From positions 1-5,383 of IMG/VR virus record IMGVR_UViG_2684622670_000007: a stretch of 5,383 nucleotides of DNA; one strand, written 5' to 3'. Position numbers and translations under genes: made by a program. Source of the DNA: a virus. Taxonomy: Duplodnaviria; Heunggongvirae; Uroviricota; Caudoviricetes. Below the pieces are notes generated by a model. It saw nothing but the letters and a program-made list of their open reading frames with translations, was not told the origin of the DNA and searched no databases. This document shows positions 1 through 5,383 of the stretch, piece after piece (position 1 is the first letter of the stretch; each line of letters begins with the position of its first letter).

Positions 1-436
1 GTACCGGTTTAACCTCGTCACGGGGCTTTCTGATGGCTGAAAGACGCTTTACAAGTTCATCCATCGCCTGACTCGATGCGTCGATGGTTCCGCTTTGGAT
101 TGGTTCACGCATTTCATCCATGATTTCCAGCACCAGACGGCGGTGATAGTTATCCGCGACCATTCCGGCATATCCCTTCAGGTTTGCGGCACTCGGGCAG
201 TTTTTGCTGGTCATCAGGATTGACGTGAAATGCTCCTCTCCGCACGCCTCGGCAACCATCAGCGCGTCGATTAGGTTTCTGTTTCGCGCCTGCTTCCGGA
301 TAACCTCGAAGGCTTTCCGGTAGAGCGGAATTGAAAACGCTTCCGGCTCAAGCGTTGCCAGAACGTCACTGGCAGTTGGTGTTAATCCACCAATCAGCAG
401 GCCACCGATAACGCTCGCTTCGATATCCTGTTTCAT
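1..436 (-). CDS. Replicative DNA helicase, DnaB family (phage P22 gene 12-type), N-terminal ~145 codons only; gene continues past the left edge
   Basis: Manual minus-strand translation from ATG (revcomp 434-436) gives [17 protein letters not shown]...[18 protein letters not shown]..., matching the conserved DnaB N-terminal domain (E. coli DnaB ...EAEQSVLGGLML...NTPSAANISAYADIV...). The start overlaps the stop of the upstream O-like gene (ATGA), suggesting translational coupling. Not in the ORF track because it is truncated by the window edge. Confidence 0.7.
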
Positions 437-1380
437 GCAATCCCCCTGTCTGCAAACTTTCCTTCCCGTACTCCCGTTAACGAATCTTCCCTCAGCAGGT
501 AATCAAAATCTGCCGTCCAGCCCGTGTCGTTGTCTCCGAAGTAAAACGGCTTGGCCTGATGCACAAACGCCCTGACATACGCTCTGAAACCGTCCACGTT
601 TGGCGTTTTCAGTTGCGGGATAATTTTCTTCAGGCGGCGTTTGCGTTTCTCGTTGACCGCAACAGCGTGTGGAAGTCTGTCACCGACTTCGGTGTTGTAG
701 GCGTTCAGGAAGGATTCGTAGTCGATTCGTTCTGCCTTGCGACGTTCAGGTTTAACCTGCCAATCGCCTCCCCCATTGGGGGGTAGGGGGGTATTATTTA
801 TATTCTTGTTAATACCTTCTTGTTCATGATGTGCGGTTGTTTGTGCGGCTTCATGTGCGCTTTCATGTGCGGCATGTACTCTGAAAGCCGCGCCATTACT
901 GGCTTCGTCATGTGCGGCATCATGTGCGGTTGTTTGTGCGGCTTCATGTGCGGGTGAATCGTCCGTTTTTTGAGCATATTCATGGTAATTTGTGATGGTA
1001 ATCACACGACCTTTTTGCTTCTCTCCATCAATGGTGATCATCTCCTCTTTCACAAAAACCTGAAGCATCCGCTCAACCTGATCACGGCTTGCCGGCTTGC
1101 CATGCCTGTCGCATAACTGAAGACCTAAATCAGCTGCTGTCACAACCAGTTGACCGGGTTGCAGATGCCATTCATGACCTTTGAAATTCGCTTTGTATGG
1201 CTTTCTGGCGGCATTCAGGAGAAGGTTTTCCCACAGGGTGCGAAGATAAACATCTTTCGCCCATGACTGTTTCAGAATGCTCCGGTACAACGGAATGTAA
1301 CCAGTTTTCTGGTTCTCCATCCTGTTGCTCCTGCGCTCGTGTGCGGCGCTGAAATCGTAGATTTTTGCTGTATTGCTCAT
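433..1380 (-). CDS. Replication initiation protein, lambda O / P22 gp18-like (315 aa)
   Basis: N-terminus MSNTAKI... resembles lambda O (MTNTAKI...). Sits downstream of cII and upstream of the helicase, as in lambdoid replication modules. The central low-complexity linker ([17 protein letters not shown]...) is encoded by the iteron arrays. A Shine-Dalgarno-like AGGCAGGT precedes the ATG. Confidence 0.85.
790..953. repeat. Putative phage replication origin inside the O-like gene: two arrays of four 12-bp-spaced iterons (core TGTGCGG) plus a flanking AT-rich segment
   Basis: TGTGCGG cores (one TGTGCGC variant) start at 830, 842, 854, 866 and at 911, 923, 935, 947, giving an exact 12-bp period within each array. 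A 35-bp unit at 825-859 is repeated at 918-952 with 34/35 identity. The AT-rich stretch 790-824 lies immediately downstream in the O reading direction, the same iteron-then-AT-rich order as lambda ori. Confidence 0.6.
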
Positions 1381-1382
1381 AA

Positions 1383-1655
1383 CTACCTGCCTTGACGAAA
1401 GACCTTAAGAACATCGTTAAACTGACTTACGGATATGTCTTCTTTGAGCAGCTTTTCCAGAAATGCGTTTGGAATGAACGTATATCCCTCCTCTTTTGGT
1501 AGGGACGGGAGCAACGCCCTCGCCTCAGCCTTCAGAAGCTCAGTTCTGGCAACTTTCACAAAAGAGATTTGAGTTCTTTCATCAATGGAACGAAGGAAGC
1601 GCAAACGCTTAACTTCTTTGTGTGTATCAGGTGGATTAAAGCCTTTGTTTCGCAT
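1383..1655 (-). CDS. Hypothetical protein (90 aa) between cII and the O-like gene
   Basis: Internal ATG (revcomp 1653-1655) is preceded by GAGGTAA at good spacing. The 146-aa version in the ORF track would overlap the cII-like gene by about 145 bp in another frame, so the shorter start is preferred. The stop lies 2 nt before the O-like ATG. No homologue recognised by eye. Confidence 0.5.
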   Translation of the reverse strand: MRNKGFNPPDTHKEVKRLRFLRSIDERTQISFVKVARTELLKAEARALLPSLPKEEGYTFIPNAFLEKLLKEDISVSQFNDVLKVFRQGR

Positions 1656-1666
1656 ATAATTACCTC

Positions 1667-1735
1667 GTTGGATGTTATTAAAATTCCATTTGTATTTGAT
1701 CAGAACGCTCGGTCTTGCACACCGGGCTTTTTTTA
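1667..1735 (+). ncRNA. OOP-like antisense RNA (promoter pO-like plus intrinsic terminator), antisense to the 3' end of cII
   Basis: Perfect -10 TATAAT at 1655-1660 with a weak -35. Plus-strand hairpin 1707-1713/1721-1727 (7 bp, one G-U) followed by T7 (1728-1734) lies inside the cII 3' coding region. The predicted ~68-nt transcript would overlap cII by ~57 nt, as lambda OOP does. Confidence 0.45.
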
Positions 1736-1977
1736 TTGGTGAGTCCATCAAGCGCATACTTAAAAGCCCTGCTAATCGGACTGATGTCTGATGCCATTCC
1801 AAAAGCACACAAGACCGAAGCAATAAATCTCCAGTCCGTTCTGCTTATCTTCGATTCATGACAGCCAATCATCTTTGCCAGACCGCGCTGGGTAAGCGTT
1901 GACAGGTTGATGAGTAAATCTGTTTCTGCGCGATCAACGTCGCGCTGTGATAGTTTGCTGTAACTTGTTTGTTCCAT
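1678..1977 (-). CDS. cII: cII-like transcriptional activator (99 aa)
   Basis: The translation aligns with lambda CII from recall: HTH region ...ESKISRTDW... and C-terminus ...LTNKKSPVCKTERSDQIQMEF versus lambda ...LTNKKRPAATERSEQIQMEF. Position downstream of cro and nutR is as expected. Confidence 0.85.
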   Translation of the reverse strand: MEQTSYSKLSQRDVDRAETDLLINLSTLTQRGLAKMIGCHESKISRTDWRFIASVLCAFGMASDISPISRAFKYALDGLTNKKSPVCKTERSDQIQMEF

Positions 1978-1987
1978 TTCTTATGAT
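1955..1987 (+). promoter_or_regulatory. PRE-like cII-dependent promoter: TTGC-N6-TTGT (1955-1968) with candidate -10 TATGAT (1982-1987), directed toward cI and antisense to cro
   Basis: Lambda CII binds TTGC-N6-TTGC repeats flanking the -35 of PRE, located over the first codons of cII on the opposite strand. The same geometry is seen here (cII ATG = revcomp 1975-1977). The -10 is inferred from spacing. Confidence 0.5.
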
Positions 1988-2004
1988 TTCCAATAGTGAA
2001 TATT

Positions 2005-2027
2005 ACGCATCTGTTGATGCGTTTTTT
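2005..2027 (+). terminator. Intrinsic-terminator-like hairpin plus T-run on the plus strand in the cro-cII intergenic region
   Basis: ACGCATC (2005-2011), loop tgtt, GATGCGT (2016-2022), then a T-run through 2027. On the minus strand (cII leader) the same hairpin is preceded by an A-run and is not terminator-like. Function uncertain. Confidence 0.35.
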
Positions 2028-2028
2028 G

Positions 2029-2067
2029 TGGGGACGAATCATCCCCGACCTGATTGTTTAAAGAGCG
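2029..2067 (-). promoter_or_regulatory. nutR-like site: boxA (minus-strand CGCTCTTTAAACAA, plus coords 2054-2067) and boxB hairpin (plus coords 2029-2047)
   Basis: boxA is close to the recalled consensus CGCTCTTTAACAA. The hairpin GGGGA-ugauucg-UCCCC reads the same as the one downstream of PL (3761-3779). It lies between cro and cII, as lambda nutR does. Confidence 0.6.
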
Positions 2068-2074
2068 GTGTTAC

Positions 2075-2299
2075 TTATGCTGCCTGATTCGGTTTTGGAA
2101 ACAGGTGTGGCAAATCGGGGCGAATTTCGTAAGCCTTGATCTGCCCTCCAGTGGCGTTAACGATGGCGGTAACTTTCTCTGGAGAGACCAACCCGCCTTT
2201 CAGCCATTTGTGTACTGCTGGCTGCGTTACACCACACTTGTCGGCAAGGCGCTTTTGGCTACCGACAATTTTCAAGGCTCGTTGAATTACTAAATTCAT
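2075..2299 (-). CDS. cro: Cro-like repressor, HTH_XRE family (74 aa from the preferred start; ORF track extends to 2320)
   Basis: HTH segment GSQKRLADKCGVTQPAVHKW. First gene downstream of predicted PR. The ATG at 2297-2299 is preceded by AGAGGT at 7-nt spacing, whereas the ATG at 2318-2320 has no SD and lies about 6 nt from the predicted transcription start. Confidence 0.75.
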   Translation of the reverse strand: MNLVIQRALKIVGSQKRLADKCGVTQPAVHKWLKGGLVSPEKVTAIVNATGGQIKAYEIRPDLPHLFPKPNQAA

Positions 2300-2332
2300 G
2301 AGCATACCTCTTGTGGTCATTACTTATAACCA

Positions 2333-2361
2333 AAGATAACTCAAGTTATAAAAAATAGCAA
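2333..2361 (-). promoter_or_regulatory. PR-like promoter (minus strand): -35 TTGCTA (2356-2361), 17-bp spacer, -10 TATCTT (2333-2338)
   Basis: Sigma70-like hexamers overlapping OR2 and OR1. The same -10 hexamer and flanking AGTTATCTTT are found at the predicted PL. Confidence 0.55.
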
Positions 2362-2398
2362 TAACCTTTGTTATTTTACTTTGGATAACCGTAGTTAT
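2336..2398. promoter_or_regulatory. Tripartite right operator: OR1 2336-2349 (ATAACtcaaGTTAT), OR2 2361-2374 (ATAACctttGTTAT), OR3 2385-2398 (ATAACcgtaGTTAT)
   Basis: Three perfect 14-bp palindromes of form ATAAC-N4-GTTAT with 24-25 bp centre-to-centre spacing, between divergent cro and cI. Related sites occur in the OL region. Confidence 0.7.
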
Positions 2399-2401
2399 AG
2401 A
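2373..2401 (+). promoter_or_regulatory. PRM-like promoter for cI: -10 TATAGA (2396-2401), poor -35; the cI mRNA is probably leaderless or nearly so
   Basis: The -10 overlaps OR3 and the predicted start is 1-3 nt before the cI ATG (2411), as for lambda PRM. The weak -35 is consistent with an activator-dependent promoter. Inference only. Confidence 0.4.
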
Positions 2402-2410
2402 TTTGTGGGT

Positions 2411-3118
2411 ATGAAAACATTCGCAGAAAGACTAAATGCAGCCATGAGCTCAGCAGGTGTATCGCAATCACAGCTTGCTGACATGGTTGGAATATCTCAG
2501 CCAGCCATACAGAAGATGTCATCCGGTAAAACAAACGGATCTCGCAAGATGGTTGAATTAGCCAATGCTTTAAAAGTACGCCCTGAATGGCTTAGCTCTG
2601 GTATTGGTGAAATGAGGGATGGTACACATGAAGAACCATCCAATGTCCGTGAATCATCTTTAAAAGCTGTGGTATGGGAAGATATTAAAAGAAACGATGA
2701 CGAGTTTGTCGCGTTGCCTCTTCTTAACGTTTCGCTTTCAGCTGGAAGCGGTAGCTGCGAGCTAGAGGAATCATCAGAGTTCTCTTTGGTTTTCAGAAAG
2801 TACTATCTGAAAAAGATGGGGGTATCTGAAAGATCAGCCAAGCTAGTTAGGGTTGTAGGGCAAAGCATGGAACCAACGCTTCACGACGGAGATGTTGTTG
2901 GTGTTAACACACAAGATACCACAATCAGAGATGGTAAAACCTACGCTATTTGCCAGTCTGATTTGTTACGAGTAAAAACATTAATCGCCACCCCTACATC
3001 GGTGATAATCAGATCAATAAATCGCGAAGAGTACCCAGATGAAGTAATGGATAGAGATGAATTTCATGAAACCGTAAGGATTATTGGCAGAGTATTCTGG
3101 TCGTCTCATAGTTGGTAA
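2411..3118 (+). CDS. cI: CI-like prophage repressor: N-terminal HTH_XRE domain plus C-terminal S24 (LexA-type) autopeptidase domain
   Basis: HTH QSQLADMVGISQPAIQKM; S24 motifs GQSMEP (Ser nucleophile) and RVKTL (Lys); candidate Ala-Gly cleavage site in LSAGSG. The ORF track begins at TTG 2381, but the ATG at 2411 (MKTFAERL...) fits the promoter geometry. Confidence 0.9.
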   Translation: MKTFAERLNAAMSSAGVSQSQLADMVGISQPAIQKMSSGKTNGSRKMVELANALKVRPEWLSSGIGEMRDGTHEEPSNVRESSLKAVVWEDIKRNDDEFVALPLLNVSLSAGSGSCELEESSEFSLVFRKYYLKKMGVSERSAKLVRVVGQSMEPTLHDGDVVGVNTQDTTIRDGKTYAICQSDLLRVKTLIATPTSVIIRSINREEYPDEVMDRDEFHETVRIIGRVFWSSHSW

Positions 3119-3158
3119 CCGATAATCAGAAGAAGACTTACGGAAGTGCGGAGGGATA

Positions 3159-3455
3159 ATGGAATTTCTGATAGTTTTTGTTGTTGTTTTGGTCATCATT
3201 CTTTTTGTTTTGCTAAGCATTAGCAAAAAGCTATCTCAAACGATTGAACATAGCTCTAATCGCGCAAAAGAAGAAGACCATCTAATTGATATAAAAGAGA
3301 TTCTCTCTGATATAAAAATCACATTAGATGAAATAAAATACACAACAGATCTAATTGAACAGTATAAAATACCAACCCCAAACGAGAGAAAAGCAATAGA
3401 TCAATATCGTATTGACTTAGAAATCGACGAAATGCTAAGCAAAAGAAAAGACTAA
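3159..3455 (+). CDS. Small membrane protein (98 aa): one N-terminal transmembrane helix then a charged, probably coiled-coil domain; sits in the position of lambda rexAB and is probably co-transcribed with cI
   Basis: Strong SD GGAGG (3150-3154) before the ATG. Hydrophobic residues 3-21 (FLIVFVVVLVIILFVLLSI) are followed by a K/E/D-rich region. Markedly AT-rich compared with the flanking phage genes. Lies 41 bp downstream of cI and is followed by an intrinsic terminator. Confidence 0.6.
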   Translation: MEFLIVFVVVLVIILFVLLSISKKLSQTIEHSSNRAKEEDHLIDIKEILSDIKITLDEIKYTTDLIEQYKIPTPNERKAIDQYRIDLEIDEMLSKRKD

Positions 3456-3460
3456 AAACA

Positions 3461-3490
3461 CCCGGCCTCAGCGCCGGGTTTTCTTTTCCT
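3461..3490 (+). terminator. Rho-independent terminator ending the cI operon; possibly bidirectional
   Basis: Stem CCCGGC (3461-3466) / GCCGGG (3473-3478), 6-nt loop, then TTTTCTTTTCC. An A-run upstream (3454-3458) gives a U-run for the opposite strand. Confidence 0.75.
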
Positions 3491-3608
3491 GCCGTCCCCC
3501 CCCCAATCAACCATCCTCATCATAGACAAGCATCAAGCCAAAGGTAGCACTTTCACCCCGCACGCAAGCCCTCAAACACCAATCAATCAGCAACATTTAC
3601 AAAAATAA

Positions 3609-3691
3609 AATACCTTTGTTATCCATCACCTATAACTTATTTACCATAAAATATAAACTAAGTTATTGACCACACCTATAACCTAAGTTAT
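3609..3691. promoter_or_regulatory. Left operator region: OL1 3678-3691 (ATAACctaaGTTAT, perfect), OL2 3653-3666 (one mismatch), weaker OL3-like site 3609-3622
   Basis: Same 14-bp ATAAC-N4-GTTAT family as the OR sites. OL1 and OL2 are 25 bp apart and overlap the predicted PL hexamers. Confidence 0.6.
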
Positions 3692-3694
3692 CTT
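3666..3694 (+). promoter_or_regulatory. PL-like promoter: -35 TTGACC (3666-3671), 17-bp spacer, -10 TATCTT (3689-3694)
   Basis: Sigma70-like hexamers overlapping OL2 and OL1, directed toward nutL and the N-like gene. Confidence 0.55.
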
Positions 3695-3740
3695 TAAGCC
3701 ATCAGCAGGACGCAGGAAGCCAAACGGAACAGATTGGCAG

Positions 3741-3779
3741 GCTCTTTAACATTGATGGAATGGGGATGATTCGTCCCCA
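3741..3779 (+). promoter_or_regulatory. nutL-like site: boxA GCTCTTTAACA (3741-3751) and boxB hairpin (3761-3779)
   Basis: boxA-like motif followed 9 nt later by a hairpin, TGGGGA-tgattcg-TCCCCA, that matches the nutR hairpin at 18 of 19 positions. Lies between PL and the N-like gene. Confidence 0.6.
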
Positions 3780-3933
3780 CCAAAGAGAGGTTGGCTTTGG
3801 GATTTGATGAATGTGCAGGTCGATGCACTAACGCTTAGCGGTGAGCACCTGCCTTTGGGGCAGGATGGGTAGCCGCAATCAGGAGATCGACACCTGACAT
3901 CAAATCACCAAAGTCAATCATCGGAGGTATCCA

Positions 3934-4140
3934 GTGAAAGCAAGAGAGATTCGCAAACTCGAACGCGCTCGTAAGCACAAAGAGGCGACAGCAAAACGTA
4001 AAAATATTGACCGTGTTTCAATGGTGGTTTCGCTAGCAGGAGCGAATAGGAAGAAGGTTGAATGTGGTTCGTGCTGCCTGCCAAACGTAGCTCTTTACGC
4101 GGCAGGCTACCGGAAATCAAAACAACTGACGGCGAGGTGA
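3934..4140 (+). CDS. N: N-like transcription antitermination protein (68 aa, GTG start)
   Basis: First gene downstream of PL and nutL. Arginine/lysine-rich N-terminus (MKAREIRKLERARKHKEATAKRK). The C-terminal part resembles N proteins of P22-type phages from recall (unverified). Strong SD GGAGG (3923-3927) 6 nt before the GTG. Confidence 0.7.
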   Translation: MKAREIRKLERARKHKEATAKRKNIDRVSMVVSLAGANRKKVECGSCCLPNVALYAAGYRKSKQLTAR

Positions 4141-4161
4141 CGATCCCCCGCCGTCGAGGAA

Positions 4162-4701
4162 CTAAATTAGCTCATCAGCTTTACCAGCAAAGCGCATATA
4201 ACACTCATAGAACCAGACGTCAGGTATAACAAATTTCTCTTTACCTGACGCGCTGTAAGTCACACCTGAGCGATGGAGAAGGCCTTTTCTCATAAGAGAT
4301 AAAGCGACCGGATCGCCGTGCTTAAGTACGATTTTGTTATTTGCCATAACAGCAAATGCTAAAACCTCTTTTTCCTGAATACTCAGAGAATTGAACAGGC
4401 GCTCAGTCTCCACAATTACTTTAGCCTCATCTCTCTTACTGAGATATTTTTTATATCTGTCTGAAGATGCCAGAAATATAAACTCCATCACCCTGTTCAG
4501 AACATAACTGATACACAAAAGCATTGCGTAATACATCCAGTGATCTGGAAGTATTTCGGGGTTCCTTATATCTACCCACTCTTTAATTGATGCTGGGGTG
4601 ATTATTATCAAGGCAATTAAAATAATAAGCATATGAATTAACTGTTGTAGCGTAAGACCACGCAGGAAGAAACGTAATAGTTCCTGCCACCAGTTACTCA
4701 T
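4162..4701 (-). CDS. Membrane protein (179 aa), putative superinfection exclusion protein B (SieB)-like
   Basis: Convergent with and abutting the N-like gene, the arrangement I recall for lambda sieB and N. N-terminal hydrophobic segment (LIHMLIILIALIIITP) and soluble C-terminal domain. GGAG-type SD before the ATG. Low GC. The assignment rests on position, size and topology only. Confidence 0.5.
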   Translation of the reverse strand: MSNWWQELLRFFLRGLTLQQLIHMLIILIALIIITPASIKEWVDIRNPEILPDHWMYYAMLLCISYVLNRVMEFIFLASSDRYKKYLSKRDEAKVIVETERLFNSLSIQEKEVLAFAVMANNKIVLKHGDPVALSLMRKGLLHRSGVTYSASGKEKFVIPDVWFYECYMRFAGKADELI

Positions 4702-4720
4702 CGGTGAATCTCCATCATTC

Positions 4721-4768
4721 TCTCTGTAGGGGTGAATAGAGTTTATCCGATTTCTCGCTGTAGGGGTA
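4721..4768. repeat. Imperfect direct repeat with shared core CTGTAGGGGT in the divergent intergenic region
   Basis: TTCTCTCTGTAGGGGTGAATAGAG (about 4719-4742) and TTTCTCGCTGTAGGGGTACACGAG (about 4751-4774); the cores are ~35 bp apart, between the divergent SieB-like and 149-aa genes. Confidence 0.45.
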
Positions 4769-4846
4769 CACGAGAACCACCGAGCCTGATGTGGTTAAAA
4801 GACAGGCGCAATCTTTACAACCGCAATCCACTATTTAAGGTGATAT

Positions 4847-5296
4847 ATGGAAGAACAAGCAAACAAGATTCTCGTAGAACTACTGCAAAAAGCCAGTAAT
4901 GGAATAGACGCGGCTGTTTCATTTAGCCAGGCACAGATTCCTGATGTTGTTCATCAGTTGCTGCTATGGAATATGGTTGACAGTCTGATTAAAACATTAA
5001 TAGCCATTCTAACAATCCCACTGGTTTTCTGGTTTATGAAGAAGCAGTGCCAAAGAGTTGAGACAGGTAAAATCGGTGATGAAGGATACTCATGGGAAAG
5101 GGGAAATCCCAAATACAGGCCGACAATGGTTTGGGATAGCAAAGGAGATATTAACCTTCTTATCATGCCATTGGTTGGAGTTTTGACTCTGTGGGGGATT
5201 TTTATTATTGGTGTAGTAACCAATATGACTTGGTTAAAAATTTGGCTGGCCCCAAAACTTTACCTTATCGAATATGCAGCATCATTGGTTAAGTAA
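4847..5296 (+). CDS. Hypothetical membrane protein (149 aa, two predicted transmembrane helices)
   Basis: SD AAGG (4837-4840) 6 nt before the ATG. Hydrophobic segments LIKTLIAILTIPLVFWFM and LLIMPLVGVLTLWGIFIIGVV. Low-GC, divergent from the SieB-like gene. No homologue recognised. Confidence 0.55.
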   Translation: MEEQANKILVELLQKASNGIDAAVSFSQAQIPDVVHQLLLWNMVDSLIKTLIAILTIPLVFWFMKKQCQRVETGKIGDEGYSWERGNPKYRPTMVWDSKGDINLLIMPLVGVLTLWGIFIIGVVTNMTWLKIWLAPKLYLIEYAASLVK

Positions 5297-5383
5297 TTTC
5301 AGGCCGCATAATCGTCCTTTATTTTTGGCATAAACAACAGAATAAACACTGCACTGTGTATTCATTCCAACGAGTGAATACAC

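Follow-up and report, generated by a model that had tools for sequence, protein, structure and literature searches.

Do the two copies of one short RNA hairpin that flank the immunity region of a phage genome act as the boxB elements of an N/nut antitermination system, and if so, what would recognize them? We addressed this question for a 5383-nt stretch (the window; positions 1 to 5383) of IMG/VR record IMGVR_UViG_2684622670_000007, which is a lambdoid immunity region. The best explanation, to which we assign a probability of roughly 85%, is that the hairpins are the boxB elements at nutL and nutR in a lambdoid prophage, a P22-like mosaic, that would use the standard N/nut mechanism with a new recognition pair. 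The support comes from sequence, position, spacing, conservation, covariation of the outer base pair, co-occurrence with a particular arginine-rich motif (ARM) and joint replacement of boxB and ARM.

The 17-mer GGGGATGATTCGTCCCC was found without mismatches at 3762–3778 on the plus strand and 2030–2046 on the minus strand, exactly two copies in the window. No third copy was present there when up to two mismatches were allowed, and 0 of 200 dinucleotide-preserving shuffles of the window yielded a match. The likeness between both hairpin copies (inverted repeat I1) spans 23 nt (96%). The initial annotation had counted 18 identical positions out of 19 between 3761–3779 (plus) and 2029–2047 (minus), which is accurate; the sole mismatch is the first base, U versus C. 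It had also stated that the same hairpin follows a boxA-like motif in both early operons, and one exact boxA GCTCTTTAA indeed lies ahead of each hairpin, at 3741 (plus) and 2066 (minus), with a gap of 12–13 nt. On its own, this 9-mer was without statistical significance; its fixed distance to the hairpin was significant, with a spacer of 11–13 nt in a set of 103 boxA-linked sites representing 59 distinct contexts. The nutL boxA, GCUCUUUAACA (3741–3751, plus), contains the exact GCTCTTTAA and is invariant in an alignment with the leaders of Stx1a_10051, Gally, Enterobacter prophages and P22, and the nutL hairpin, GGGGAUGAUUCGUCCCC (3762–3778, plus), was the same in 49 of the 49 nutL sites of related loci. 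On the minus strand, the nutR boxA GCUCUUUAAAC (2056–2066) lies 9 nt past the cro stop codon, and the nutR hairpin, again GGGGAUGAUUCGUCCCC (2030–2046), starts 28 nt past it. Both the PL and PR transcripts thus contain a CGCUCUUUAACAA-like boxA, which can be aligned to boxA in the P22, Gally and Enterobacter leaders and corresponds to the feature labelled nutL/nutR (boxA) in the P22 record, and each early operon has one stable hairpin at a short fixed distance 3' of it. An Rfam scan of the window returned nothing relevant, its sole match with E < 1 being a chance snoRNA match elsewhere in the window.

Both copies lie where the P22 and lambda records have nutL and nutR. A promoter scan placed a PL-like promoter (TTGACC-17-TATCTT) at 3666–3694 on the plus strand, inside operator repeats, with a probable transcript start at ~3701 (AUCAGCAGGACGC...). 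From ~3701, the leader matches the PL leaders of P22, Gally, Stx1a_10051 and the Enterobacter prophages base for base, its start aligns with the annotated 5' nucleotide of P22 PL RNA, and it also resembles the lambda leader. Counted from this start, boxA lies at ~+41, boxB at ~+62 and the start of the N gene at ~+234, the plus-strand hairpin being 155 nt before N. The operator-like repeats in the cro–cI gap recur around the PL-like promoter at 3652–3695: TATAAxCTAAGTTAT is found at 3652 and 3677, and 2332–2350 is common to the right operator (repeats D9, I4). The second hairpin can be placed in the PR transcript because a cro-like gene of 74 amino acids lies at 2075–2299 on the minus strand; its product matches Pfam YdaS_toxin, HTH_3 and P22_Cro, and the same 74-residue protein appears in the RefSeq annotation of E. 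coli E2865. The order on this side is cro stop codon, 9 nt, boxA, boxB and then cII. Relative to boxA, PL, cro and N, the hairpins are placed and spaced as in the nut sites of lambda and P22, which agrees with the earlier proposal that duplication at nutL and nutR supports function.

The gene downstream of nutL (3934–4140, plus) encodes 68 amino acids from a GTG start, with a Shine-Dalgarno sequence GGAGG at 3923–3927, 6 nt ahead of the GTG. This GGAGG was kept 6–8 nt before the start in nearly all of 28 distinct DNA versions of the gene, the few others having GGAGA or another distance. Codons 1–20 encode the ARM MKAREIRKLERARKHKEATA, with four arginines, four lysines and one histidine in the first 17 residues, and codons 21–68 a C-terminal module like that of P22 gp24 (67% identity between residues 21–68 and gp24 residues 53–100). 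The protein scored 60.3 bits against Pfam PF25694 (N_peptide), above the gathering threshold of 27.9; the match covers residues 12–68 on profile positions 44–100 of 100, leaving the ARM part of the model unmatched. Judged by its sequence, this open reading frame (ORF) is an N protein, and some databases already name such proteins 'transcriptional antitermination N peptide', their C-terminal family membership being recognized automatically. A search of PDB sequences with the protein gave no meaningful match. The 68-residue allele, or its single-residue variant L54I, was found in 10 complete E. coli genomes and about nine IMG/VR contigs, and the full nutL–N module in 10 of 5426 complete E. coli genomes.

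Related N proteins share the ARM far more strictly than anything else. A protein search recovered 68-residue E. coli and 80–82-residue Enterobacter proteins, all with an exact MKAREIRKLERAR[KQ]HKE, the remainder being only ~59% identical. In the Enterobacter loci, the nutL hairpin is that of the window and the nutR hairpin reads AGGGAUGUUUCGUCCCU, which differs by a compensatory G-C to A-U change at the outer pair and one loop change. We then scanned IMG/VR independently with the hairpin core GGGATGNTTCGTCCC and with a degenerate back-translation of the ARM. The ARM scan gave 42 matches, 33 of which were already matches of the hairpin scan; four were unrelated proteins and 38 were N-like, and all 38 of the latter had the core upstream. 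With one genome per species, the ARM pattern had 10 matches, and the one genuine case, Erwinia sp. P6884, has both nut sites; the other nine were unrelated proteins, for example a ribosomal protein L29-like MKASELRK.

Pooling E. coli, Enterobacter, Erwinia and IMG/VR prophage loci gave 51 N genes starting MKARE[ILV]RK, a set with some redundancy among its IMG/VR loci, many of which had been found through the motif itself. The core lay ≤450 nt upstream in 50 of the 51, and in every locus whose flank reached 3.2 kb or more (30 of 30) an opposite-strand copy was present, 1.3–3.2 kb away. In the remaining locus, L059 (3685–4625), the nutL hairpin is ~900 nt upstream of N, compared with 113–409 nt elsewhere; there may be an extra gene between nutL and N, and the ARM (MKAREIRKLMRAVSHQRA) is the most divergent. 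Among loci with one hairpin match, none was shown to contradict the pairing; the one read through in detail, L028, has a contig that ends ahead of the expected second site.

There were 35 distinct N proteins with this ARM, and their C-termini were P22-like in 40 loci, lambda-like (...PLI) in nine and of another type in two. Since it is joined to such different C-termini, the ARM behaves as an exchangeable module. Within it, K2, R4, R7, K8, R11 and H15 were invariant across the N proteins, each encoded by two to four synonymous codons (CGC, CGT, AGG and CGA for R7; CGC, CGT and CGG for R11). Invariant key basic residues with varying codons point to purifying selection on the protein, and the spacing of residues 4, 7/8, 11 and 15 would place them on one face of a helix.

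The closest leader, that of Stx1a_10051 and Gally, provides a natural swap control for boxB and ARM. From the PL start it is near-identical to the window up to a point 10 nt short of boxB, and the match resumes 1 nt past boxB. The boxB in between is UCCCGCCGAAAUGCGGGA, paired with the ARM DDNARNRRRARRQAQREQ, and the replaced part of N comprises its first two thirds; UCCCGCCGAAAUGCGGGA in this near-identical leader goes with the ARM DDNARNRRRARRQAQ. Over its last ~25 codons, the Stx1a_10051 N rejoins the window sequence (residues near-identical). Other phages carry further pairs in the same frame: boxB CUCUCAACCUAACCGUUGAGA with the ARM GTAKSRYKARRAELIAERR in phi21/Kapi1, boxB GCGCUGACAAAGCGC in P22 and 933W, and boxB CUACCGCCGCUUGCGGUAG with its own ARM in Erwinia phage Midgardsormr38. 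BLAST homology of the window to database phages ends at 3759–3761 and restarts at 3779. These swaps and homology breaks indicate that hairpin and ARM are exchanged together as a specificity cassette. Cassette exchange is known N/nut behaviour (PMC8022706), and a novel boxB specificity was proposed for epsilon34 on similar grounds (PMC2629481). The alignment of nut sites from P22, phage 21 and Stx-type phages that the initial annotation had suggested thus shows a shared leader with another boxB at the same spot. Its claim of a specificity other than lambda's, matched to the short N-like protein, holds on this comparative evidence, since ARM type and boxB type change together in the pooled loci, the reciprocal scans and the swaps.

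All 49 nutL sites in the set of 103 read GGGGAUGAUUCGUCCCC. The sites other than nutL, which occupy the nutR position as far as the flank can tell (apart from a few satellite or unclassified copies), read AGGGAUGUUUCGUCCCU in 32 cases, GGGGAUGAUUCGUCCCC (the same as nutL) in 12, AGGGAUGCUUCGUCCCU in four, GGGGAUGUUUCGUCCCU in three, CGGGAUGGUUCGUCCCG in two and GGGGAUGGUUCGUCCCC in one, giving the class consensus G/A-GGGAUG-N-UUCGUCCC-C/U. Across 23 distinct sites, the outer pair was GC in 10, AU in nine, GU in three and CG in one, and it was never unpaired; when the partner was shifted by one column, outer pairing was lost. The inner 15 nt were constant but for one base, which takes all four values, nutL always having A and nutR usually U.

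The initial annotation had described a stem with a 7-nt loop. The analysis bears out the 5-bp stem GGGGA/UCCCC, but the 7-nt loop is doubtful, being only the minimal reading: U6·G12 and G7-C11 are also able to pair. ViennaRNA gave −11.2 kcal/mol for 7 bp with an AUU triloop, −9.8 for 6 bp with a 5-nt loop and −7.9 for 5 bp with a 7-nt loop, and pair probabilities of 0.99 for U6·G12 and 0.90 for G7-C11. Most simply, then, the free hairpin is modelled as a 7-bp stem with a U·G wobble and an N-U-U triloop, the variable base being the first of the triloop or, alternatively, the second of a G-N-U-U-C pentaloop. A true 7-nt loop UGAUUCG, read open by the ARM, is the less probable structure, though one to be taken seriously. 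It is valid on sequence alone, direct reading of the loop predicts the observed invariance of U6, G7, U9, U10, C11 and G12, and the weak U·G and G-C pairs could come apart on N binding, which this structure would require. Against it, nearest-neighbour energies favour 7 bp with a triloop by 3.3 kcal/mol, minimum-free-energy and centroid structures agree at both window sites and all natural variants fold alike, and invariance cannot tell the two models apart.

Compared with the known pairs, the window combines familiar architecture with its own recognition elements. The boxB of lambda and P22 has a 5-bp stem closed by U-A, and its G-A-x-A-A loop folds like a GNRA tetraloop with one base extruded. 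The sequence between the arms here, UGAUUCG, is U-rich and has no G...A closing mismatch, and under any reading of it the loop cannot, by its sequence, form the sheared G·A, GNRA-like fold of lambda (GAAAA/GAAGA) or P22 (GACAA). With P22 gp24/nut, the window shares operon layout, aligned leader start, boxA and post-boxB small hairpin, the C-terminus of N and the Pfam family; it differs in that the ARM is at the very N-terminus, unrelated in sequence to gp24 residues 14–33, in having 32 residues fewer, and in the stem and loop of boxB, the GNRA-like G-A-C-A-A pentaloop of P22 GCGCUGACAAAGCGC not being present.

With lambda, whose boxB is GCCCUGAA[A/G]AAGGGC, it shares boxA, a short spacer and a hairpin in both early operons, an ARM that begins at residue 1, and a C-terminus ending ...IPLI in some relatives of the window N. 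The two ARMs can be placed in register by eye at M1, A3, R7, R11, A12 and K14, a resemblance that is visual only, as BLASTP of N against lambda N gave no significant alignment. Unlike lambda N, the window protein has no equivalent of Trp18 and an invariant His15 instead, and the lambda boxB has 5 bp and a 5-nt purine-rich loop versus the predicted 7 bp and 3-nt loop here. In both systems, nutL and nutR are one loop base apart. The base that differs in lambda is extruded and unread, and by analogy the single variable base here may not be read by the protein. Phage 21/Kapi1 offers a precedent for a 7-bp stem with a loop that is not GNRA-like (CUCUCAAC-CUAACC-GUUGAGA) behind an almost identical PL leader, with its own stem, loop and ARM (GTAKSRYKARRAELIAERR). 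A recent, experimentally tested case is mEp021 Gp17, an N-like ARM protein with its own boxB class and three nut sites (PMC11893012). That class, too, is defined largely by conserved arginines and boxB loops; mEp021 differs in belonging to a non-lambdoid phage group and in its three nut sites and A-rich boxB loops.

If the hairpins are boxB, RNA polymerase starting from PL (plus strand) or PR (minus strand) would transcribe boxA and, 12–13 nt on, the hairpin. Host NusB/NusE would bind boxA. In the free state N proteins are disordered; the first ~18–20 residues of the 68-residue N would fold as a helix and bind the hairpin through a basic face made up of R4, R7/K8, R11 and H15. NusA and RNA polymerase would next be engaged by the C-terminal part, which resembles that of P22 gp24, giving readthrough of downstream terminators. 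We infer the binding, the dependence on Nus factors and the structure of the bound hairpin.

Several points weigh against this reading. The case is comparative and computational, binding and antitermination being predictions, and residues 1–20 of N have no statistically significant likeness to any characterized ARM. Covariation is limited to one pair, the outer one; the inner stem supplies none, because its 15 nt never vary. That invariance is silent on pairing, fits direct read-out and was partly imposed by the search pattern, with the ARM-based scan retrieving the same core. In complete E. coli genomes, the RefSeq Prokaryotic Genome Annotation Pipeline (PGAP) annotates only the last 90 nt of the gene, as a pseudogene ('regulator, incomplete, missing N-terminus'), as seen in E2865 and Z1323CEC0019 (coordinates 4492–4581 in L001 and 4484–4573 in L002). 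The E. coli protein also lacks 12 residues found in the 80-residue Enterobacter relatives, and reduced or lost activity of the 68-residue allele is conceivable from its sequence. Taken further, these observations, together with the GTG start and a length of 68 residues versus ~100 for the N of P22 and lambda, would make the gene a truncated pseudogene and the hairpins leftovers, early transcription proceeding without N or through another factor. We consider such relic sites improbable. Reading frame, Shine-Dalgarno sequence and the N-terminal 17 residues are kept from E. coli to Enterobacter and Erwinia with only synonymous changes at the key basic residues, and the allele recurs among the E. 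coli genomes and IMG/VR contigs counted above. The comparative data show the pseudogene call itself to be an artefact, explained by a model derived from P22-type proteins, the first 43 positions of which have no counterpart here.

It is more improbable still that the site acts without a protein, as an intrinsic terminator, a put-like RNA or a DNA inverted repeat marking recombination joints. The copies do flank the immunity region as an inverted repeat, with BLAST homology breaking exactly at the hairpin on both sides. Such breaks are, however, what cassette exchange predicts, and a role in DNA alone would leave the strict tie to one ARM without explanation. No U-run follows either hairpin (ACCAAAGAG after nutL, ACAAAAAAC after nutR), and a terminator scan listed neither site. 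The put RNAs of HK022 are two-stem structures of ~70 nt in a phage without N, whereas the window has a 17-nt hairpin beside boxA and a cognate N gene. An exclusion factor that arrests transcription of rival phages at their boxB would, like the protein described here, be short, carry an ARM and occupy the position of N, for which HK022 Nun is the precedent (PMC4124055). We give this possibility the least credence of all, as cognate hairpins and boxA lie in the phage's own two early operons in all relatives, and the module at the C-terminus matches P22 gp24 or, in some relatives, lambda N, and not Nun. In the Nun type, the targets are the nut sites of other phages, and the phage itself uses put RNAs without a cognate nut; the window shows the opposite arrangement.

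Two matches of the hairpin scan, L041 and L122, were not prophage nut sites. They lie in a ~620-nt non-coding gap between a tyrosine integrase gene and a gene of the AlpA family. Downstream of alpA are genes for AntA, DUF4222, ash, Icd-like and TOPRIM/DUF927 primase proteins, and the element adjoins tRNA-Thr and proA. Its AlpA (WP_000035054.1) and gene order are those of EcCIMP1, a phage-inducible chromosomal island (PICI) of E. coli MP1 (PMC11773190). The nut-like modules that make up the int–alpA gap form an array on the strand of alpA, with a promoter-like site ahead of it. The modules include a lambda-like boxB GCCCUGGAGAAGGGC with a boxA, a boxA with CUUUCCUGAUGCAGGAAAG, the P22/933W boxB twice (one exact GCGCUGACAAAGCGC, the other with U as its first base in L122 and exact in L041), the window's hairpin class as CGGGAUGGUUCGUCCCG, the exact lambda nutR boxB GCCCUGAAAAAGGGC abutting a boxA, CACGCCUAAUAGCGUG, and a Gally-class hairpin CCUGCCGAAAUGCAGG. 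The array spans 4690–5310 in L122 (identical in E. coli 510016, L158 6001–6621), 1400–2100 in L041, 1771–2197 in L156, 1771–2162 in L157 and 2358–2784 in L161 (E. coli MP1, EcCIMP1). Module number varies by island, the shorter versions, EcCIMP1 included, keeping three or four. L175 (~1535–2333), a different AlpA satellite, has its own array with the window's class, a Midgardsormr38-like hairpin and a P22-like variant. Part of the gap was matched in 663 of 5426 complete E. coli genomes.

Within these elements, all boxB motifs lay upstream of alpA and on the same strand as it, with a few boxA-like matches on the opposite strand. An array general to AlpA-family loci was rejected: 69 of 80 AlpA relatives in IMG/VR (73–83% identical) had no boxA or known boxB upstream, and four more had a lone boxA-like match. 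With arrays limited to six loci with identical AlpA plus L175 among the 80, the feature is lineage-specific. An EcCIMP1 alpA reporter covering −449 to +50 responds to induction of the helper Kapi1 (PMC11773190); this span is exactly the int–alpA gap, and the N of Kapi1 is of the phi21 type. For Gram-negative PICIs, the activator of alpA that the helper encodes 'remains to be identified' (Fillol-Salom et al. 2018, PMC6092414), and in the searchable literature we found no paper that joins PICIs and alpA with antitermination. The sequences suggest that these satellites may sense helper N proteins through a nut array of multiple specificities, with helper N switching on alpA, their master activator gene, by antitermination, which offers a testable hypothesis for helper sensing by PICIs. 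Because the window's hairpin is filed there beside bona fide boxB elements, the array is also independent evidence that it is a boxB.

The ARM/boxB class appears to be undescribed and would add a new specificity class to the known N/nut system. A literal search through 8 million papers and preprints for the hairpin sequence, written as DNA or as RNA, found none, although a subscription journal may contain a description. Of 50,697 phage records, none carried this boxB or ARM when they were searched with the E. coli leader and 5' half of N, the Enterobacter leader and N, and the ARM and linker peptide; the best peptide match, in Erwinia phage Midgardsormr38, was rejected as having another ARM and another boxB (CUACCGCCGCUUGCGGUAG). 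N/boxB is the textbook case of RNA recognition by an arginine-rich peptide, and lambda N–boxB is a standard tethering tool; structurally studied pairs are to our knowledge few, namely lambda, P22 and phi21. The present pair is well defined, with 35 distinct proteins and 59 distinct site contexts, and since a GNRA-like loop is impossible here it is a good candidate for a new tethering pair orthogonal to existing ones and for a recognition geometry that is itself new. The unusually short 68-residue allele would, provided it is active, give a lower bound for the amount of N required in addition to the ARM, and its identification corrects an annotation error, the PGAP pseudogene call. Tentatively, a wider proposal can be put together: the ARM MKAREIRKLxRAxxH and GGGAUGNUUCGUCCC might form a peptide–RNA pair structurally unlike, and orthogonal to, those of lambda, P22 and phi21, in which a U·G-containing 7-bp stem with a triloop is read by a helix with an invariant histidine within the shortest N seen, and the presence of the hairpin in the EcCIMP1-type boxB 'library' before alpA might make helper N acting on the satellite nut array the PICI-inducing signal. 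We regard this combination as possible but doubtful as a whole.

The leaders contain further structures outside boxB. A small hairpin, CCAAAG-N9-CUUUGG (3780–3800, plus), lies directly 3' of the nutL boxB and is part of the N leader, not of boxB. It is kept regardless of boxB class in the leaders of the window, Enterobacter, Gally, 933W, the Erwinia phage and lambda, was seen at the same place in L003, L010, L011, L012, L153, L154 and L159, and has a P22 version with compensatory changes (CCAAAC...GUUUGG). Just past it, 3796–3809 is complementary to 3898–3911 (14 nt, 86%), just before the N Shine-Dalgarno sequence; the lambda counterpart is CUUUGGGGUGUGUG/CACACACCACCAAAG. We place here the RNase III-sensitive stem of the N leader, through which translation of N is controlled. 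Just downstream of nutR, a hairpin ACGCAUCAACAGAUGCGU at 2005–2022 (minus) is kept with compensatory changes in Enterobacter, P22 and Gally relatives; read on the plus strand, it resembles an intrinsic terminator with a T-run. It may be related to tR1 or have a role in the PRE transcript.

The remaining genes of the window are a cI-type repressor with an S24 peptidase domain (2411–3118, plus), cII (1678–1977, minus), sieB (4162–4701, minus), an O-like replication gene (433–1380, minus) and, between cI and PL, a small membrane ORF of 98 amino acids (3159–3455, plus). Lambda has rexA and rexB between cI and PL. The membrane ORF has one predicted membrane helix and no Pfam family above threshold, and is followed by a strong bidirectional terminator at 3460–3479. 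The O-like gene contains, at 820–965, at least four repeats phased by 12 nt (CATGTGCGG..., repeat D1), and such phased repeats are typical of the iteron/ori repeats inside lambdoid O genes.

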